A stretch of DNA of 64,000 bases from positions 5,376,001-5,440,000 of the forward strand of contig CM000153.2 of assembly GCA_000004695.1 (NCBI GenBank). Reading direction: 5' to 3'. A program made the position numbers and the translations under genes. This DNA is from Dictyostelium discoideum. Lineage: Eukaryota. Below the pieces are notes generated by a model. That model had not been told where the DNA came from, did no database searches, and worked only from the letters and a program-made list of their open reading frames with translations. How positions within the stretch are numbered: the first letter of the stretch is position 1; the number at the start of each line of letters is the position of its first letter. This document shows positions 15,671 to 60,017 of this stretch, one piece after another.

Positions 15671-17263
15671 ATGAATAATTATTATTATATTTTAATATTT
15701 TTATTATTTATAAATTTATTAATTGTTAAAGGTGATGATGTTCAATGTAATACATTTGTAAATTCACAATCAAATATGGATCCAAGTGAATGTGGTTCTT
15801 CATCAAATAATGCATGTTCAAATATTTCACAATCAATTTTAAATTGTGGTGAATTTAATGAAATTATAATTACAATTAGTCCAGGAAATTATTCAATTAA
15901 TAGTGAAACATTTGGACCAATTACAAATAAGAAAATTACAATTTTAAATTCTGATCAACCAATTATTCAACCATCAGTTATTATTAATTTATCAAAATCA
16001 GTTTCTCCATTTATTAGATATATTCCAACAACTATTGATGATACATTAACAGTATCATTAAATGGTATAACATTTGAAAATGGTATTCAAAGAGGATCAG
16101 TATTATTAAATAATGGATCTGGTATAATTAATTTATCAGTTGTAAATTGTGCATTCATTAATATGTTGGATTCAAGTTATGGTAGTACATTTTCATTCAC
16201 TAATAGTAGTAGTTTAACAACACCAACAACAATTGGTATTGTTTCAATTAGTAAATCAACTTTTTCAAATTCAAATTCAAATCAAATGGGTGGTTTTATT
16301 TATAGTATTAATTTACCAATTCAATTTACAATTGATCAAAGTAGTTTTTTAGGTCAAAATATTAGTGGTACTGGTATTAGTGTTGCAATTTTAAATGGAT
16401 ACTTGTCAGTTTCAAATACAATCGTTAAAGGACTCTATACAAAATATCCATTCTATTTACAAAGAAATAATGGTATTAAATCAGCAATGACAACTTTTAC
16501 ATTTAATAATGTTACATTTAAAGATTTAACCGAAGGTTTTGCTATAATGATAACTGGTGATAAAACAACATCAACTGAAATTAAGAATTGTACATTCACC
16601 AACACTGTTAATATTTCACCAATTTTCATTCAAGGTATTTCTCAAGCAAATATTCAGTCATGTACTTTCACTAATAATACAAATACACTTTCACTATTAA
16701 ATAGTGCAGGTGGTATTTCAATTGAATCAACCACTGCAACTATTAATGATTGTGTTTTCTTAAATAATAAAGCAAGACTAGGTGGTGCAATTTCAACAAG
16801 TTATTGTGATCTTCAAGGCGTTACAATTACAAATTCAACATTCCAAGGTAATAGTGCTCAGTATTTTGGTGGTTCAATTTATAATGTCAATTGTAATACT
16901 ACATTTAAAAATGTTGATTTCTCAAGTTTAGTTACAAATATTTCAACAGTTTATTGTTCAGCTTCAAATATGATATTCTCTTCTTCAAATTTCACAGATT
17001 CTGGTAAAGAAATAAATGATTTAAGTAATCTTGGTATTATTTGTAATTCAAATCCTTGTGCTATTACAATTGATTCAAAACCATCAATTCAATGTCAATA
17101 TAATGAAAATGATTCAAATGATAATAAAGGTGGTTTATCAACTGGTCAAAAAATTTTAATTGCTTTCGGTGTAGTTATTGGTTTAATAATTATAATTATA
17201 ATTATTGTTATTATTGTTAGAAAAGTTAAAAAAAATAGAGAATATAAACCATTTGGTTATTAA
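15671..17263 (+). CDS. Secreted/type I membrane protein with parallel beta-helix (Pmp-like GGAI/FxxN) repeats, 530 aa.
   Basis: Signal peptide. Repeated NxTFxN...GGAI motifs (NCTFTNTVN, GGISIESTTATINDCVFLNN, LGGAISTSYCDL, FGGSIYNVNCN). A C-terminal TM ([22 protein letters not shown]) and an RKVKKNREYKPFGY tail. Confidence 0.65.
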   Translation: MNNYYYILIFLLFINLLIVKGDDVQCNTFVNSQSNMDPSECGSSSNNACSNISQSILNCGEFNEIIITISPGNYSINSETFGPITNKKITILNSDQPIIQPSVIINLSKSVSPFIRYIPTTIDDTLTVSLNGITFENGIQRGSVLLNNGSGIINLSVVNCAFINMLDSSYGSTFSFTNSSSLTTPTTIGIVSISKSTFSNSNSNQMGGFIYSINLPIQFTIDQSSFLGQNISGTGISVAILNGYLSVSNTIVKGLYTKYPFYLQRNNGIKSAMTTFTFNNVTFKDLTEGFAIMITGDKTTSTEIKNCTFTNTVNISPIFIQGISQANIQSCTFTNNTNTLSLLNSAGGISIESTTATINDCVFLNNKARLGGAISTSYCDLQGVTITNSTFQGNSAQYFGGSIYNVNCNTTFKNVDFSSLVTNISTVYCSASNMIFSSSNFTDSGKEINDLSNLGIICNSNPCAITIDSKPSIQCQYNENDSNDNKGGLSTGQKILIAFGVVIGLIIIIIIIVIIVRKVKKNREYKPFGY

Positions 17264-21048: not shown

Positions 21049-22782
21049 TTAATAAAATAAAGTAATAAAGATTAATAATAATAAAAATAATGATGATGTT
21101 GATAATAATTTTGAAGTTGAATTACTTGAATATTTATCTTGATCACAAATTTTACCAGTTTTGGTTGGTAAACATTGGCATAGACCAGTGACAGGATTAC
21201 AAGTACCACTATTACTACAACCTTGTGTTGTTGTATTGGTTGAAGAAGTTGGAGAAGTGGTACCATTGGAAAATGATTGACCTGGGCAAAGTGAATAGAA
21301 TGAAATTGTTGAAGTATCACTATCTGGTGCTATATTATTTCTTTGACCATCAACAGTTATAACATAAGAGATTGGATTTTGTAAAATTTCAACACCAGCT
21401 TCATAGTAACATACAATTGTTGAACTTGTAATTTCTAATACTTTACATGGTTTATCAGCGATTGTAATTGTAGTATTTGTATAATTTGCCCAATTTGTAC
21501 CATAAAATGTGAAATTCAATTTATTATTAACATAAAATCCATTTGGAACAACTGCATCAATAATTGGTTTTTGATAATGTGATTTAAATTCATTCGAATC
21601 ATGATTAACATTATTCCCAACTGATCTTGAAAAAATTGAAAATGAAATTGAATCATTTAAATTTCTTTGTGGGAATTTACATTTTTTATAATAAATATTA
21701 TTATTACTTGATGATGAAGTTGTTGCTTTTGTTGATGATGATGAAGAATCTGATGTTGATGATAATGTGTCATCACCATTGTCATCATCATCAGTATTTG
21801 AATCTTTAATTAAAATTGTTGAACAATTTAATTTTGTTGATGGTGATAAATAAATATCAGATAAGTAACTACCAGTTATATTAATTGTATCACCATTATA
21901 ATTTGGAAAATCAACATTTGTAATTATTGGTGTTAAATATAATGGTAATGTATTTGATTGTTGAGAATTTGCATTTACATAGATATTACCACTTGAAGAA
22001 TCACTATTAATTTTAATTAATAAATTTGTATCGTTAATTGATAAGATATCAGTTAACTTTGTAATGATTAATGAATCATTATTAAAATCATGGATTTCAA
22101 CGAAAACTAATTTCATTGATTGTTTTGATCCAAAATTTGTACCACTAATATTAAGATATTGTTGAGTGGTTTTATTATTATTATCTTTAATGTCAACAAC
22201 TGATAATGATTCAATATTTGGTAATTCATATTTGAATTTAATTGAATTTGATTTTTTACCACTATCAACATTTGTTAATGATATGGTTAGAGGTGTTTGG
22301 AAAAAACTTGGTGGATAGAATTTAACGGAATCAGATGCTGTTGAATTTATATCAACATTTGAACCACCAATGGTAACAAGTAAATGAGTTGATGTTTTGT
22401 TTGTTTCTGGATTTGAATTTGCGTTGAAATAGAATCCTCTAATTGTGATTTCAATTGATGATGTTGGTATTACTTTTGGATCCATACTTGAAATATATGG
22501 TGATAATACAACTGTGGTTATATCAATTACATTTGTACCTTCTTCTTTATCATACACCAAGAATCCACCATTAATTGATTTGGCTGGTGGGAAACATGTC
22601 AATATTGTAGTATTAATTGAACATAGTTGAGTAATATCACCAATATTTGAAAAGGAAATTGTATATTTGTCAATGGTTTTATCAAATTCTCCAGTAACTA
22701 TTATTTTTTCATTTGTTTGACTATAACCACATTTTGATAATATTATTGAATTTATTATTAAAAATAATAATAATAATAATTT

Positions 22783-22785
<3 letters not shown>
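21049..22785 (-). CDS. IPT/TIG-domain plus EGF-like cell-surface glycoprotein (Tgr-like), about 578 aa, with a hydrophobic C-terminus (GPI or TM).
   Basis: The real start is the second Met, at the signal peptide MKLLLLLFLIINSIILSKCGYS. The upstream poly-K in the tracked ORF is poly-A. IPT/TIG signatures are ITIRGFYFNANS and ISGTNFGSKQ. A C-terminal EGF-like module (CSNSGTCNPVTGLCQCLPTKTGKICDQD) precedes a hydrophobic tail. Single exon. Confidence 0.6.
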
Positions 22786-44536: not shown

Positions 44537-44587
44537 ATGTTGTTTGATTTAATAAATTCATTTTTAAAGAATGGAATAAATAATAGC

Positions 44588-44619
<32 letters not shown>

Positions 44620-46504
44620 TAATTTTTATAATTCTTTGGAGGATGATGATTATTTATTAAATAATCAAACAACCAAAGTATCATTGTATTTGTATTTCTT
44701 TATATTTGCATTTATGTTTTTAGTAGTGGATTTAATAATGTTATATTATAAACATAGAGAGAATATAGAGTCAAGAGAAACTGATCTATCTTTAAAATTA
44801 AATAAAATGTTAATAGATTTTGAAAATGATAATAAAATAAAATCATCACCAACAACATCTACTACAACAACTACAATAACACCAACTACTACTTCATCAT
44901 CACAATTAAGACAACCATCAACACCAAAAACAACAACTAAAACAATTAATTCACCACCATCAACACCAAAATCACCACCACCTTTACCATCATTAGAATC
45001 AAAACTATTATATAAAGATGATATTAAACAACAATTATCATTAAATGAAGCAAAGAGTCAAATTGATAGTGCTAAACAACTGGATGAATCATTAAAATAT
45101 AATAGTTGTATTAAATTATATATAGATGGTATCGAGAAATTAATGGCATTATTCTCAAGTTACAACTCTAAAGAATATAGAGATTATATTGATTTTTACC
45201 TAAAAAGAGCGGAATATTTAAAAAATGAATTAAAAAAAGGTACAAATTTAAAATCAATAACTAATTTTAATAATTTTTCAAAAGAATATCAAATAAATTA
45301 TAATAATAAAATTTTAGAACAGCAACAACAACAACAACAACAATCATCATCAACATATAGAAACTCATTAAATTTATCTTCTTCTAAATCAAATTCAACT
45401 ATAAATAATAGACATTCAATATCTTCATTATCTTCATTAAATTCAACAACAGCAACAACAACAACACCATCAAATACTTCAACAATAACAAGTCCGGGTA
45501 ATAAATATGGATTACAAAAAAGTTTATCATCAACAACATTATCATTAAAAAAATCATCAAATTCAACCAATTTTCAACAACCTTCACCACCATCAATGGT
45601 TATACCAGATATAAAAGGAATTGATAAATCTATGGTAACATTAATTATGAATGAAATTATGGATAGAAAGAATCCTGTTAAATGGGATGATGTGGTTGGA
45701 TTGGATAAAGTTAAACAATCATTGATGGAATCAGTTATTTTACCAAATTTAAGACCCGATGTTTTCACAGGTTTAAGGGCACCTCCAAAAGGTTTATTAT
45801 TATTTGGTCCACCAGGTAATGGTAAAACAATGATTGCCAAAGCAGTTGCCTATGAAAGTAAAGTAACATTTTTTAGTATCTCTTCAAGTTCACTAACTAG
45901 CAAGTATGTAGGTGACGGTGAAAAATTGGTACGTGCATTATTCGCTGTTGCAACTCATTTTCAACCTTCAATTATTTTCATTGATGAAATTGATTCATTG
46001 CTAACTGAACGTTCTTCAAATGAATCTGAGGCATCTCGTCGTTTAAAAACAGAGATTTTAGTTCAATTCGATGGTGCTAGAACAAATGGTGATGAAAGAG
46101 TATTGGTAATGGGTGCAACTAATAGACCAGAGGATTTGGATGATGCTGCATTACGTCGTCTCGTTAAACGTATTTATGTTGGTTTACCAGAACTTGAAAC
46201 TCGTTTACAAATTATTCAACATTTACTAGTGGGTCAAAGACATTCTCTAACCAAACAACAAATTAATTCACTAGCTGAAGTAACTCAAGGTTACAGTGGT
46301 TTTGATTTAGCTGCACTTTGTAAAGATGCTGCTTATGAACCAATTAGAAGATTAGGTATAGGTATTAAAGATTTAGAATTAAATGAAATCTCTCTTATTA
46401 GTTTTAAAGACTTTGCTAATAGTTTAAAACAAATTAGACCATCAGTAACTTCTCAATCTTTAAAATCTTTTGAAAAATGGAATCAAAAGTTTGGAACTAT
46501 TTAA
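44537..46504 (+). CDS. Spastin-like AAA ATPase (membrane hairpin plus MIT plus AAA), 655 aa.
   Basis: N-terminal hydrophobic hairpin ([24 protein letters not shown]). A MIT-like helical domain ([39 protein letters not shown]...[14 protein letters not shown]). Walker A GPPGNGKT, Walker B IIFIDEID, and second region of homology [17 protein letters not shown]. The C-terminal ...[21 protein letters not shown] is typical of the spastin/katanin meiotic clade. Single exon. Confidence 0.8.
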
Positions 46505-46689: not shown

Positions 46690-49478
46690 TTAAATTTTAT
46701 TTTTATTTAAACCAACTTTTTCTAATTTTCTTTTTAATGTTTGTTGTAACATTTTATTCTTTTTATTTTTATAAAAGTAATAAATAATACAAACTATAAT
46801 GACTGTTAAGAAAGCAACACCACCAATGACGATACCAGCGATTTGACCTTTAGTAAGAGATGAATTATTTGAACAAATTGAATTTTCAGAATTACTGGAT
46901 GCTGCTCTTTGATCAATAATGATTGAAAAGTCTGGATCAATAATAACTTTATTCGAATATTGTGGAATTGTAATTCCAATAAAACTTTGAGTTGAATATG
47001 AATTTGATATTGGTTTCATTGTTGAATCTAATAATATATTTTCAATTGATTGAACTTTTGAATCGATAATTGCACGTTTAATAAATCTACCATAGACTGA
47101 ATGATTATCTACTTGAATCTTTATATAATTTGAGTCATCACCACTTGTTGTATTACCAAATTCTTTTGATGAACAAATATCATCATTGTTTTCACTTGAT
47201 ATTAATGATGCTGACATTACAAATTGTAATGTATTTAATGATTGTGAAAATGGATATTTATTAATTTCGATTGTATATTTAATTGATGATGGATTCATTA
47301 TTAATTGTTGATTTGCAAATTCAACTATACTACTTTTATTAAACCATTCAATTGTTGCACTAATATTTGTAATAGTATTTGTATTTGAATTAACAATTGA
47401 TGTTTCATATAAATTTTTATTACTTTCGAGTGGTGTAAATATCCATTTATCAAAAGTATATAATTTAATTTGTTCACCTTTATAATTTAATTCTCTTAAT
47501 GATACTAATGATATTAATGATTTAAATATTATTTTTGATATATTTTCATCACTATCACTACTATTATCAGGTGATGGAATTGGAATTTCAGTTGATGGTG
47601 TAGTTGTATTTGTTGATGGTTGTGGTACTATTATAATTTGAGAAGTACAAGTTAAACCAATAAATGGTGGATAACAAATACATCCACCGTCTTTACAAAT
47701 ACCTTGGTTTGAACCTCCACATTCTGGATTACCTTGACATTTTTGTGGTGGGTTTGTTGGTATTGGACTAACTGTTGGTATTGGTGTTGTGGTTGGGGTT
47801 GTGGTTGGTGTTGTAGTTGGGGTTGTAGTTGGTGTTGTAGTTGGTTCAATTGGGTCTGTATAATTAAAAAAGAATAGTTTTGGTTGAACTATAAATTCAT
47901 TTGATTCCATAGATGTTGAAGAACTTGTAATTTTAATTGTAAAAGATTGATTTGTTGATCTAATATTTTCAATATAAATAAAACTATCAAAAATTGTTTT
48001 TGGAATAAATGATATATAATTTGCACCATCACCACCATCAGAGTATTTTAAAAGTACTCGAATTGAATTAATATCTCCAATGTTTCCATATGTTAACATT
48101 CTACCATAAATCATTAAATTACCACCATAATTTGTAATTGAATTGGTTGATGAGATATATGGTTGATTATTTGTAAAAATACTTGTATTTATTGAATGAT
48201 CAAAACCTAAATTTATAAGTGATTGAGTTGGATAACCACTATAATAACCTCCATTATTTATAAATCCAAAAACTGATAAAATGATACCATTCATATTACC
48301 AAAACCGATTGGTACAGTAGTTGTACATACGAATTTTGTTTTATATTGAAATGGTGTTGAATTTGTTGAAATACATTTATGTATATCTAATTCTAATGTT
48401 GTTAAATAAACAATTGGGAATTGATTATCTCTAATACCTGTTTCTTGATCTTCACATTCGAATTCAAATGTAATACTTCTATCACCTAATGATCCAACAT
48501 CTAAACTACTTTTACTACTTTTAAATGATAAAAGCATTGGTCCTGTTGAATCATTAATACCACCACTACAAATGTTATTAATTGGTGATACTAAAACTAT
48601 TGATGTATCATTTAAATAGTTTATAAATGGATTAAATTGTGATGACTCTGGATCTTCAGATAATTTAATATAGGAAGCTTGATTATTAAAAGTATCATAT
48701 AAAATTACATCTGTGATTTCATAAGGTTGTTGAATACATTGTAATTGATTTTCTTCAATATAAATTTCATATTCACCATTCCATTTATCACCTTTGATTG
48801 CTTTTGATGGTTCGATTGTAAAATTATGAAGTGAAGAATCGATTGTACCTCTAACTGAAATATAACCATTCTTTAATCCATTTATATTATCTTGAATAGT
48901 AACTAACCAACCAAATGTATCTTTTGGTAAATTTGATGGATTCTTTATAATTTTACTAAAAATTGGTCCATATATATCAATATCTATGAAAAAAAAAAAC
49001 GGTTAATAAGAATTTATGTATCAATATCTGTGAAAAAAAAAAAAAAATAACATACTTTTTGAAATTAAATTTAATTGTGCAGATTGTGGTAGTTCAGAAC
49101 TAAAGATTTTAATTTCTTTTGAAAAAGTTAAATAATAATTAGCAATACCAGTCATAGTGTTTGCAGGAATATTAAACATTACTTGATATCTATTATCTAC
49201 CCATTCTGCGAAAATGTAATTTTCTTTAATTTCTCTATTATTTGAATTAACTACTGAATTAAATTGATTTTCAGTTAAAGTTTTTGGATCCATTAAACTA
49301 AAACCAATTGATAAATCTTTATAATTATTAATATTTGTAAAATTAAAATAAATAATATTTGAAACTGATTGATTTGTAACATGAACATTATTATATAAAA
49401 ATGTAATATTAACTAAATCTTGAAAATTAAATTCTAAAAAATAAATATATATATTTTAATAAAGGAGAGAAAAATGTT

Positions 49479-49524
<46 letters not shown>

Positions 49525-51611
49525 AAACATACCATTAATTTCAACAGAAGGTAATCGAAATGACTTTTGATTTAAAAATGAAATTGGTAAACCAATGTAA
49601 TATAAATTAACCATACCAGAAAATGTTAATACTTTCATTAATTTTCCATTTGAATCTTTTCCACCTAATACACCATCATAAATGGTTTCCCAAATTCCAT
49701 GATAATAATCACCTGATACAATATCGTTTGGTGTTAAAGTAAAGGATGATTTATCGGTATCACCTCTATATCTAATAGATTTAATTGGATATGGACCAAT
49801 AGTTGATAATGTAAATTGAAGTAAAAATTTAAAGTTACCTAAATAAACAGAGTTGAAATCTTGAATTTTTCCTACGATTGTTTCATTATATGGTACGATA
49901 TTGATTGGTTTGAATTCAATGTATTTGGAAAAAGAAATACTTATAAAGGTAAATTTCATATAATCAATAAAATATTGATATGTAATTGTTGAAACTGTTA
50001 AATTAAAATTTAAATTATTTCCTTCAGTGAATGCATAAGGGAATGGTTCAGCATAATTATTAAATTGATCAGTAGCATCATAATGTATAATTTTAAAATC
50101 ATAATCCTTATTAAAATTAAGACTAACTGTATAAGTTGTTATTGTTTTATTTTCGAAGATTGGATATGTAATATTATCTGATAATGGTAAAAATGGAGCT
50201 ATTTTTTTTTAAAATGAAAAATTGGATTAGAAATTTTTTATTATTAATTATTATTAATTATTATTATTATATTTTATATTTACTAGTAATAGAATTTGTA
50301 AAATCATAACTATTGTAATTAGGTTGACCATTTTGATAAAATAAAGAATATGAGCCAGGAAGATAGGAAAGACAAGATGCAATGAATTCAATATTACCTA
50401 AACTTCCTAAAATTGGTGTGACGATAAAATCAGTGGAACCATAAAATGATAATTGAAAGCTTGGCATATTTGTGATATTTGTTTTTGTAAGTTTGAATTT
50501 AATAATTTGACCATAAAATAATGTCATTGCTATTATATCTGTTTGGTTTGGATATAATGTAAAATCTGTAATTTCACTATCAAGAATAGTTGGTGTTGTT
50601 TCTTTTTAAAAAAAGATGATTTTTAAAATAAATTTTAATATTATTCTTATTATTTATTATTTATTATTTATTATTTATTATTTATTTATTATTTATTATT
50701 TATTATTTATTATTTATTATTTATTATTTATTATATATTATATATTATATATTATTTATTATATTTTATTGATAAATACCATATTTGTATGTTATATTAA
50801 ATGAAAGTTCATCGCCGTTAATTGGTAAAATAACTTTCCAATTGGGTGTTGTTTGAGTTCTAACAAAAGTATTAATGAATTTGATTCTATATAAATATGT
50901 ATCTGATAATTTGACAATACTATATGATGGTGCGTCTGATAAAATTATAGGTCTTGGTAATCCATTTAATTTGAAAACTGCTGAATAATATGACATTTCA
51001 TTGTATGTTATATCATTAATTAATGTAACTGATAGTTTTGATACATCAACAACTTTTTCATTTTAAAAAAAATAAAATGTCATGGTGGTAAAGAAATTAT
51101 AATTAAAAAAAAAAAAAAAAAAGTTAGGAAAAATCAAATAGAGATTTTTTATATTTTTTATTTTCATTTTTTTTGAAAATAAAAAATATAAAAAAAAAAT
51201 AAAAAATAAAAAAATTGAATAATTACAGTTGCACGAATAATTTAAATTAATATCAGATTCTGGAAATCCTGGAATTGTTACATTTGAAGTATAGGTTCCT
51301 TTTGAAATTTCAATTTCAAAGTTGTAAATAGCAGAATTTTCATTTTTAACAATTGAACTATACACAAAAAAACTTTGAGAATCTAAAAATACTTGAATTG
51401 GTGGACCAGTTTGATCAAGAATATTGATAACTAAAATATTAATTGTAATCTTACATTTAAGATCACCAATAGGTGATGGATAGGTATCTAATTCCAATTG
51501 GGAATTAATACATGAAGTTTCATACTTTTTTTGACAACTTACACAACAAAATAAATAAAAAATAAAAAATATAAAAACAAGTAAAGATCTTTTATTTATT
51601 GTTGTTGCCAT
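46690..51611 (-). CDS. Large IPT/TIG plus EGF-like type I transmembrane glycoprotein (Tgr-like). complement(join(46690..48983,49056..49433,49533..50198,50284..50601,50780..51052,51227..51611)), about 1309 aa.
   Basis: Signal peptide at 51611 (MATTINKRSLLVFIFFIFYLFCCVSCQ). Five introns of 174, 178, 85, 99 and 72 nt have GTAATT/GTATTT/GTAAAT/GTATGT/GTATGT donors and AAAAAG/AAAAAG/AATAG/TTTAG/CATAG acceptors. All ends are phase 1 and the exon-length arithmetic is consistent. All six tracked minus-strand ORFs between 46690 and 51611 are linked in frame. TIG-like GxxxxIxG blocks, TPTTTP repeats and an EGF-like module (CQGNPECGGSNQGICKDGGCICYPPFIGLTC) are present. A C-terminal TM (IAGIVIGGVAFLTVIIVCIIYYF) is followed by a basic cytoplasmic tail. 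The exon 1 donor is the least certain junction. Confidence 0.55.
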
Positions 51612-52137: not shown

Positions 52138-53051
52138 TTATTTATTTAAATTTGGATATTTTTCAAAAAGTTTATTAATATGACCTCTTTCATATATAAA
52201 GGTATTAATATTATATCTTTTGGCTGGGGCAGAATCTTTAACACTATCATCCAAATAGAGGATTTGTTTACCTAATTCTTGAAATAATGATAATTGTTGT
52301 CCAATTAATGGTTCACCATGTTTCAAGACTACATCTTTAGTTTCTTGAGGAAAACAAATCTTTATTAGATATTCAATGAAATAGTTATCAGGTTTAGTTG
52401 CACCACAATCAAAACTATAAGCTTCTGCATCGAATAATGAACGAAAATGATATTTATCTTCTAAATATTGAATTCTTGATGGAATATTACCACTGAATGC
52501 AACTAATTTATAATTATTACCTGGTTTCTTTAATGTATTCTTCATCCAATTCGATAAATCTTCATCGAGAATATATCCACGATAATAAGCTTGTTTAATT
52601 AAATCTACATCATAATTTGATGGTACTTTAGATTTCAAATAAATATTCCAAAATTCATTATCACTAATCATTCCTTTTCTTAATTGTTGTGCTTTTTCAC
52701 TAACTAATTCATCATGAATTAATACTACATCATATCCATATGAACTCCATTCTGCTTTTGCAAATTCTTTTCCTAATAATAATAAAAAAAAAAATAATAA
52801 TAATAAAAAAAAAAAAATGGAATAAATATTTTTTTTTTTTTTTATTTTATTTTATTTATTTTATTTTATTTTATTTTATTTTATTTTATTTTATTTTATT
52901 TTATTTTATTTTATTTTATTTTATTTTATTTTATTTTATTTTATTTTATTTTATTTTATTTTATTTTATTTTATTCTAAAAAAAGAATTTTTACCTGCAG
53001 AAAATAATACACCTCCTAAATCAAATGCTATACACCTAAAATTGTTATCCA
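52138..53051 (-). CDS. HAD-superfamily hydrolase-like protein. complement(join(52138..52772,52994..53051)), about 230 aa.
   Basis: Exon 1 is MDNNFRCIAFDLGGVLFSA (HAD motif-I-like FDLGGVL) followed by a GTAAAA donor. The 221-nt intron contains a (TTTTA)n microsatellite. A TATTAG acceptor leads to GKEFAKAEWSSYGYDVVLIHDELVSEKAQQLRKG, then the tracked ORF MISDNEFWN... Confidence 0.55.
52843..52974. repeat. (TTTTA)n pentanucleotide microsatellite, about 26 units, inside the HAD-gene intron.
   Basis: Perfect ttatt/tttta periodicity over about 130 bp. The tracked F/I/L/Y ORF there is an artefact. Confidence 0.9.
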
Positions 53052-53266
53052 TTGGGAATTCTTTAAAGCAATCAGAGACTGATTGTGAGGAGAGAAAAAA
53101 AAAATAAAAATTAAATTAAATTAAAATAAATTAAATTAATTTAAATTTTATTTTTTTTTTTTATTTTTTTTATTTTTTTATTTTTTTTTTAATTTCAGTG
53201 CCCAATAATATTTTTTTTTTTTTTTTTTTATTATTATTTTTTTTATTAACTTGAAAGGCACCTTGT

Positions 53267-59308: not shown

Positions 59309-59390
59309 GTAAGCTTGCCCGAGCTGGTCTAAGGGGTTGCATTAAGGCTGCAATATCATTGATACAAGGGTTCGAATCCCTTAGCTTACA
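59309..59390 (+). tRNA. tRNA-Leu, anticodon AAG, type II, 82 nt, copy 1.
   Basis: Acceptor stem GTAAGCT/AGCTTAC. Anticodon stem TTGCA/TGCAA with loop TTAAGGC (anticodon AAG, G37). A variable arm, and a T-arm AAGGGTTCGAATCCCTT. Discriminator A. Confidence 0.85.
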
Positions 59391-59935: not shown

Positions 59936-60017
59936 GTAAGCTTGCCCGAGCTGGTCTAAGGGGTTGCATTAAGGCTGCAATATCATTGATACAAGGGTTC
60001 GAATCCCTTAGCTTACA
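59936..60017 (+). tRNA. tRNA-Leu(AAG), copy 2, identical to copy 1.
   Basis: Same 82-nt sequence. The duplicated unit is about 140 bp: about 20 bp of 5' flank, the tRNA, and the ex-B box. Confidence 0.85.

Follow-up and report, generated by a model that had tools for sequence, protein, structure and literature searches.

The 64,000-nucleotide stretch of Dictyostelium discoideum DNA considered here (assembly GCA_000004695.1, contig CM000153.2, positions 5,376,001 to 5,440,000 of the forward strand; hereafter the window, in whose coordinates all positions are given) holds, on the minus strand between 46690 and 51611, a large split gene for a putative surface protein (gene 1) and, at 21049–22785, a single-exon gene for another (DDB_G0287199, gene 2). 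A first-pass annotation of this DNA had assigned both to the Tgr allorecognition family. Here we conclude, with a probability of roughly 0.85, that 46690–51611 is a single intact six-exon gene encoding a 1437-amino-acid type I membrane glycoprotein, and that this protein belongs to a dictyostelid-specific ComC-like family.

The window is about 20% G+C overall, with coding islands of 25–30%, and a stop-to-stop scan of the minus strand from 51620 to 46693 found exactly six long open fragments. For each gap between them we enumerated every frame-preserving GT..AG pair and kept the shortest and most AT-rich. The resulting five introns, all in phase 1, join the six fragments in frame into a coding sequence of 4314 nt with one stop only, the terminal one, which gives a protein of 1437 amino acids (aa). 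The joining of the fragments into one gene, as first proposed, is thus upheld, and the D. citrinum orthologue described below has the same plan; the length proposed at that time, about 1309 aa, was too short. Reading begins at the first ATG, at 51611. Exon 1 (51227–51611, 385 nt) encodes a signal peptide (51611–51534, aa 1–26, also delimited as aa 4–26) followed by the first ectodomain module and ends at a donor at 51226; its start and its junction are the same in the D. citrinum orthologue. Intron 1 (51053–51226, 174 nt, 11% G+C) is followed by exon 2 (50780–51052, aa 129–219), a variable ectodomain module of 273 nt, the length it also has in D. citrinum. Beyond intron 2 (50602–50779, 178 nt), which is (AATAAATAAT)n-rich and only 3% G+C, lie exon 3 (50284–50601, 318 nt, aa 220–325), again a variable ectodomain module, intron 3 (50199–50283, 85 nt), exon 4 (49533–50198, 666 nt, aa 326–547), also variable, and intron 4 (49434–49532, 99 nt). 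Exon 5 (49056–49433, 378 nt, aa 548–673) carries the first module that is well conserved across paralogues, and intron 5 (48984–49055, 72 nt) separates it from exon 6 (46690–48983, 2294 nt including the TAA stop at 46690–46692), which encodes the conserved stalk, the transmembrane (TM) helix and the tail (aa 674–1437). Across the five introns G+C runs from 3 to 18%, compared with 25% for the coding sequence, as expected for Dictyostelium. The donors read, in order, GTAATT, GTATTT, GTAAAT, GTATGT and GTATGT, so that the GTA(T/A)GT form once given for all of them holds for two of the five; the acceptors, once given as poly(A)-AG, read AAAAAG, AAAAAG, AAATAG, TTTTAG and TCATAG. All ten splice sites are canonical and the reading frame is uninterrupted.

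The end of intron 5 has a peculiarity of its own. A stretch of 20 nt that takes in the 3' splice site and the first bases of exon 6 is duplicated almost exactly in and just after this intron (48974–49040, minus strand), creating a decoy acceptor, TTTTTCACAG/ATATTGATAC (the slash marks the splice point), 44 nt upstream of TTTTTCATAG/ATATTGATAT. Use of the decoy would leave an intron of 28 nt and bring in a stop after four codons, yielding a 677-aa product without a TM helix. We considered this as an alternative isoform and regard it as unlikely, the remaining intron being so short. The duplicate is absent from the D. citrinum intron.

Comparison with homologues bears directly on the gene model. 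Nine homologues, 1340–1435 aa long, came up in the protein collection; the best of them, ACTFIV_005020 of D. citrinum, is 79% identical over 100% of the gene 1 query. Seven homologues (1364–1435 aa) align gap-free across all five gene 1 junctions, which are simply read through in these proteins (e.g. NYSCN/FVDVSKL, ITYKY/ETTPTIL, VEIN/EFNFQDL and LISK/NIDIYGP, with slashes at the junctions). We also worked back from the genomic locus of ACTFIV_005020 to a set of exons whose translation equals the deposited protein exactly; there are six, of 379, 273, 318, 663, 378 and 2264 nt, and the five phase-1 introns between them occupy the same positions as in gene 1, with donor hexamers of the same five types in matching order. 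Judged from these alignments, the junctions of gene 1 are more than the product of chance. The ratio of nonsynonymous to synonymous substitution rates (dN/dS, Nei-Gojobori) between gene 1 and ACTFIV_005020 is 0.32 overall (dS about 0.35), and the reading frame of gene 1 has therefore been under purifying selection. By region, dN/dS is 0.39 for aa 27–547, 0.27 for aa 548–1437 and 0.18 for the ComC supersandwich domain (ComC_SSD) region.

The conserved half of the protein is accounted for largely by Pfam families, the cut-offs of which lie between 24 and 27 bits (all positions that follow are on the minus strand). DUF7035 (48598–48981, aa 675–802; E = 6.4e-35, 120.7 bits against a cut-off of 27) opens the series, and intron 5 falls exactly at its first residue (aa 674/675); the exclusive use of phase-1 introns is consistent with a module-wise organisation of the exons. 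DUF7034 (48178–48540, aa 822–942; E = 4.6e-30, 104.7 bits against 27) comes next, and then a third beta domain (47854–48153, aa ~951–1050), which shows beta strands in the predicted model and stands where homologues have PF28405/DUF8390, a family placed here from the precomputed Pfam order in those homologues and not among the profiles scanned on gene 1 itself. A Thr/Pro-rich (TPTT)n linker (47746–47853, aa ~1051–1086), likely an O-glycosylated stalk, leads to a six-cysteine module of the epidermal growth factor (EGF)-like type, DUF7949 (47635–47739, aa 1089–1123; E = 5.5e-13, 49.4 bits against 27). ComC_SSD (PF22933; 46918–47550, aa 1152–1362; E = 3e-20, 73.2 bits against 24) adjoins the membrane, the match spanning positions 12–222 of the 222 in the profile. 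The TM helix (46774–46842, aa 1388–1410; Kyte–Doolittle hydropathy 2.87), which is a helix in the predicted model as well, is followed by a cytoplasmic tail of 27 aa (46693–46773) that is Lys/Asn-rich and basic and has no recognisable domain. Hydropathy marks two hydrophobic segments only, at aa 4–29 and 1385–1413, and the protein has 28 N-X-S/T N-glycosylation sequons. The predicted topology is that of a type I membrane protein with a short cytoplasmic tail. Signal peptide, Thr/Pro linker, single EGF-like module, TM helix and basic tail had all been recognised in the first-pass annotation, and each is found.

The approximately 650 aa N-terminal to these domains, encoded by exons 1–5, form putative all-beta modules without a Pfam family. 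When six modules were rescanned separately at E ≤ 10, the sole family-related match was a sub-threshold one to DUF7743 in the second half of exon 4, a region that takes the form of an immunoglobulin (Ig)/fibronectin type III (FN3)-like beta-sandwich in the predicted model. Eleven modules set all against all in hhalign showed no internal repeats (best probability 7%). AlphaFold2 models built on a shallow 10-sequence alignment are of low confidence (mean predicted local distance difference test scores of 58 for exon 6 and 62 for exon 4) and both show nothing but beta structure until the TM helix is reached; structure searches with them return strings of FN3, Ig and complement macroglobulin (MG) sandwiches, and a search of Protein Data Bank sequences with the gene 1 family profile found no relative of solved structure. 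'Ig-like sandwich modules' seems to us a fair label at the level of fold class as modelled; it does not confer membership of the TIG family.

Family membership follows from the C-terminal half. ComC_SSD exceeds its gathering score in gene 1, with DUF7035, DUF7034 and the EGF-like DUF7949 on its N-terminal side in that order, and the same Pfam set is precomputed in all nine homologues, with the addition of PF28405/DUF8390 between DUF7034 and the EGF module. An exhaustive HMMER search that took exon 6 as its query matched 880 sequences, each representing one 50%-identity cluster, at E ≤ 1e-3 and 388 of them at E ≤ 1e-30, mostly proteins of 1300–1450 aa aligned over their C-terminal halves. Members occur in D. 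firmibasis, D. dimigraforme, Tieghemostelium lacteum, Polysphondylium violaceum and D. discoideum AX4 itself (DDB_G0278919). As far as these searches reach, the ComC-like family is large, dictyostelid-wide and dictyostelid-specific.

The neighbourhood of gene 1 is shared with related species. On one side a 655-aa open reading frame (ORF) at 44537–46504 (plus strand), an exact match to AX4 spastin (Q54KQ7; DDB_G0287165, chromosome 5), is convergent with gene 1; since gene 2 too equals an AX4 protein, the window comes from AX4 or from a strain identical to it. Upstream, at 52138–53052 (minus strand), lies a two-exon gene for a HAD-like hydrolase of 230 aa with the motif FDLGGVLF, modelled by homology to a 227-aa gene of D. 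citrinum. The 222-nt intron of the hydrolase gene is nearly all (AAATA)n. Synteny of the locus extends to D. citrinum and D. dimigraforme, the order being a large SNF2/RING gene, the HAD-like gene, the ComC-like genes, the convergent spastin gene, a gene for some 265 aa, the profilin gene and the cysteinyl-tRNA synthetase gene. The number of ComC-like genes at this place differs: four in tandem in D. citrinum (JBTAPL010000023.1, 4.79–4.81 Mb; ACTFIV_005019, ACTFIV_005020, ACTFIV_005021 and a fourth copy), three in D. dimigraforme (including ACTA71_011464/011467, with one copy split into pieces of 315 and 411 aa) and one in AX4. No second copy of gene 1, nor a remnant of one, was found by tblastn in the 64-kb window.

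Identities within the array change abruptly along the gene. Over exons 1–4 the D. citrinum paralogues are 32–69% identical to each other, a range also given as 32–57%; AX4 and copy 2 share 70–78%, and copy 3 of D. citrinum has its counterpart in one of the D. dimigraforme copies, at 56–69%. Over exon 6 the D. citrinum copies are 95–100% identical to each other and only 76–89% identical to AX4; at the DNA level they are 96–100% identical over most of the stretch matching AX4 48.9–46.9 kb and 45–80% identical upstream of it. Gene 1 is, by these identities, the orthologue of the second copy of the D. citrinum array. In our reading the divergence of the N-terminal 'heads' predates the separation of these species, gene conversion has homogenised the C-terminal 'stalk' within each of them, and D. 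discoideum, or at least AX4, keeps the copy-2 type only.

Other D. discoideum matches, 56% identical to gene 1, were considered as hypervariable positional alleles and rejected as such, for they are two paralogues at another locus, among terpene synthase, P450 and HSP70 genes. At one of these, ACTFIT_003205 (D. discoideum GCA_054883475.1, L005 10001–16075), which spans 6.1 kb, an aberrant acidic tail (…VLITYALNWEEKLTISDSDSSDSDPDT…) replaces the usual TM end and basic tail; this may mean that the TM exon is disrupted or that the 3' end is wrongly modelled.

The single copy in AX4 raises the question of whether gene 1 is a recently inactivated or unexpressed relic, an AX4 pseudogene and the last survivor of a decaying array. 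The copy numbers, one in AX4 against four in D. citrinum and three in D. dimigraforme with one of the latter broken, would suit such a decay, as would the AX4-specific duplicated acceptor in intron 5, and no AX4 or AX4-like protein for the locus was matched in the protein collection, which does not contain the exact 1437-aa model either. A second search, however, with a conserved 389-aa segment, missed even homologues that are 80% identical, so that the missing AX4 match is weak evidence; the decoy acceptor would leave an intron that is in our judgement probably too short to splice; the frame of 4314 nt is uninterrupted and its ten splice sites are canonical; and a dN/dS of 0.32 against the orthologue shows constraint over most of the time since divergence. 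One further point weighs against our own interpretation: the reference annotation may model gene 1 differently, or mark it as a pseudogene, although the sequence argues that it is intact. On balance we think inactivation improbable.

Considerably less probable still is the assignment first made, in which gene 1 is an allorecognition-type gene of the Tgr family (IPT/TIG plus EGF plus TM), paralogous to gene 2. Tgr (Transmembrane, IPT/Ig E-set Repeat) proteins are defined by at least one IPT/TIG domain (PF01833 / IPR002909, IPR014756) in the ectodomain (bioRxiv 10.1101/2025.10.22.684067). In gross plan gene 1 does agree with a Tgr protein, running from a signal peptide through an extensive beta-rich ectodomain with its EGF-like module to a TM helix and a short tail; a signal sequence and a single TM helix fit Tgr and are not specific to it. 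Structure searches place the domains in a broad class of Ig/FN3-like sandwiches that includes E-set/IPT folds, and the dynamics of birth and death and gene conversion recall the tgr clusters (bioRxiv 10.1101/2025.10.22.684067). Against this, PF01833 finds nothing in gene 1, whether the whole protein is scanned at E ≤ 1 or six modules are scanned singly at E ≤ 10, whereas the same model, as a positive control, gives gene 2 between 42 and 47 bits per domain. The profiles of the two families align with a probability of 3% in hhalign, over 23 EGF columns only, and BLASTP between the two gives E = 0.11, so gene 2 is no detectable relative of gene 1. Four other families (DUF7035, DUF7034, DUF7949 and ComC_SSD) account for the conserved half, and gene 1 has no head-to-head or clustered tgr partner, its neighbours being spastin and the HAD-like hydrolase. 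The IPT/TIG-like repeats formerly attributed to gene 1 are not found, and the Tgr assignment is wrong by the standard of the first-pass annotation itself, under which domain searches without an IPT/TIG domain would refute it. Hardly credible, lastly, is a division of the six fragments between two or more transcripts, such as one for a secreted N-terminal protein and another for a membrane protein. Nothing speaks for it directly; the intron 5 decoy could in principle give the 677-aa TM-less product. Against it, an ATG-initiated signal peptide occurs in the first fragment only, fragments 2–6 begin in phase 1 right after AG, and full-length homologues of 1300–1450 aa from many species cover both halves in one protein.

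Gene 2 is itself of some interest. Its coordinates, its single exon and its GPI-like tail were correctly described in the first-pass annotation, and the 578-aa product of the minus-strand reading frame at 21049–22785 is an exact match to DDB_G0287199 (Q54KR8). It has a signal peptide, TIG domains at aa 96–186 (42.2 bits) and aa 407–493 (46.6 bits; cut-off 20.9), and an EGF-like module at aa ~523–549 that matches the laminin-type EGF family just below threshold (19.7 bits against 21). A hydrophobic stretch at aa 558–578 reaches the last residue and leaves no cytoplasmic tail, so that the C-terminus looks like a glycosylphosphatidylinositol (GPI) signal; some tgr members, e.g. tgrB2, also have no TM helix (bioRxiv 10.1101/2025.10.22.684067). 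In predicted domain content gene 2 is Tgr-like. The source names are 'hypothetical protein' and 'EGF-like domain-containing protein', not tgr, and a homology search returned only orthologues. The AX4 protein is about 94% identical to those of two other D. discoideum strains, with 33–35 substitutions, about 18 of them outside an S/N/D-rich linker at aa 329–360, plus indels. This divergence is high against a genome-wide mean diversity of 0.003 in D. discoideum (bioRxiv 10.1101/2025.10.22.684067), and gene 2 may be a polymorphic TIG/EGF surface protein of the GPI type.

Elsewhere in the window, two tRNA-Leu(AAG) genes lie 627 bp apart on the plus strand (59309–59390 and 59936–60017; ARAGORN), only the first of which reaches the Rfam gathering score. 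A 530-aa ORF at 15671–17263 (plus strand) matches the repeat of the Chlamydia polymorphic membrane proteins (Chlam_PMP), and adjoining it is a 1058-aa ORF without a Pfam family.

What might the product of gene 1 do? By analogy with its namesake ComC, it could act at the cell surface in adhesion, or as a receptor for contact signalling and cell–cell communication. Paralogue-specific binding would reside in the N-terminal modules, which lie farthest from the membrane and are each bounded by phase-1 introns, and the conserved part encoded by exon 6 would serve as a glycosylated stalk and membrane anchor. Since neither a catalytic nor a docking domain is present in the 27-aa tail, any signal would have to travel by way of adhesion itself or of a membrane partner protein. 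For this whole proposal, a receptor with its specificity in the variable modules and its stalk and anchor in exon 6, we see the chances as about even. We are doubtful of a more ambitious version, in which the ComC-like array at the spastin locus is a second fast-evolving surface-recognition system of group-4 dictyostelids. Its head (exons 1–4), paralogue-specific and anciently diverged, would sit on a stalk that gene conversion keeps uniform, and the number of copies differs between sibling species, from one in AX4 to three or four in D. dimigraforme and D. citrinum. As comC reportedly lies upstream of lagC/tgrC1 and lagD, and of tgrC1/tgrB1 expression, such a system could help to tell species or kin apart ahead of the Tgr checkpoint.

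Gene 1 is part of a model organism's reference genome, Pfam already covers its family, and hypothetical proteins are on deposit for its orthologues; the gene itself is no discovery but an ordinary member of a known and functionally little-studied family. What changes is its placement, since the earlier label would have put into the Tgr allorecognition family a gene that does not belong there and gene 1 is now placed as ComC-like. The ComC-like family comprises hundreds of 50%-identity clusters and is almost unstudied, its only characterised member affecting aggregation and intercellular communication. Of modest value, too, are an exon/intron model checked by homology and the combination of a head-and-stalk mosaic with copy-number change between sibling species, which could guide a search for recognition molecules beyond Tgr. 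Our literature searches, on DDB_G ids, ComC_SSD and the DUF names and on comC mentioned together with lagC, found nothing.

Among the known systems close to gene 1 is ACTFIV_005020, with which it shares a syntenic locus and a six-exon, all-phase-1 structure; the sister species differ in having three to four tandem copies, with exon 6 96–100% identical within species, where AX4 has a single copy. The AX4 paralogue DDB_G0278919 (Q54XI0) and the ACTFIT_003205 locus belong to the same length class and have the same Pfam architecture, yet are only 33% and 56% identical to gene 1 and stand in the unrelated neighbourhoods named above. The Tgr family (TgrB1/TgrC1), with 63 annotated members in AX4 (bioRxiv 10.1101/2025.10.22.684067), resembles the ComC-like family in that both consist of type I, heavily glycosylated dictyostelid surface proteins with beta-sandwich ectodomains, and both are clustered and fast-evolving; the IPT/TIG (Ig E-set) repeats that define Tgr are, however, absent from gene 1 and present in the unrelated DDB_G0287199. 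ComC itself (comC, 'communication mutant C' of D. discoideum) is a signal-plus-TM protein with an EGF domain, needed for normal development (PMC4931340), and a role of comC in intercellular communication and aggregation is mentioned where PMC8865844 cites the 2003 work. Compared by published description, its signal peptide, TM helix and EGF-like module match those of gene 1 (PMC4931340), which shares with it the Pfam domain that bears its name and carries DUF7035, DUF7034 and DUF7949 besides, all above their cut-offs. Gene 1 is a paralogue of comC at a different locus, not comC itself.

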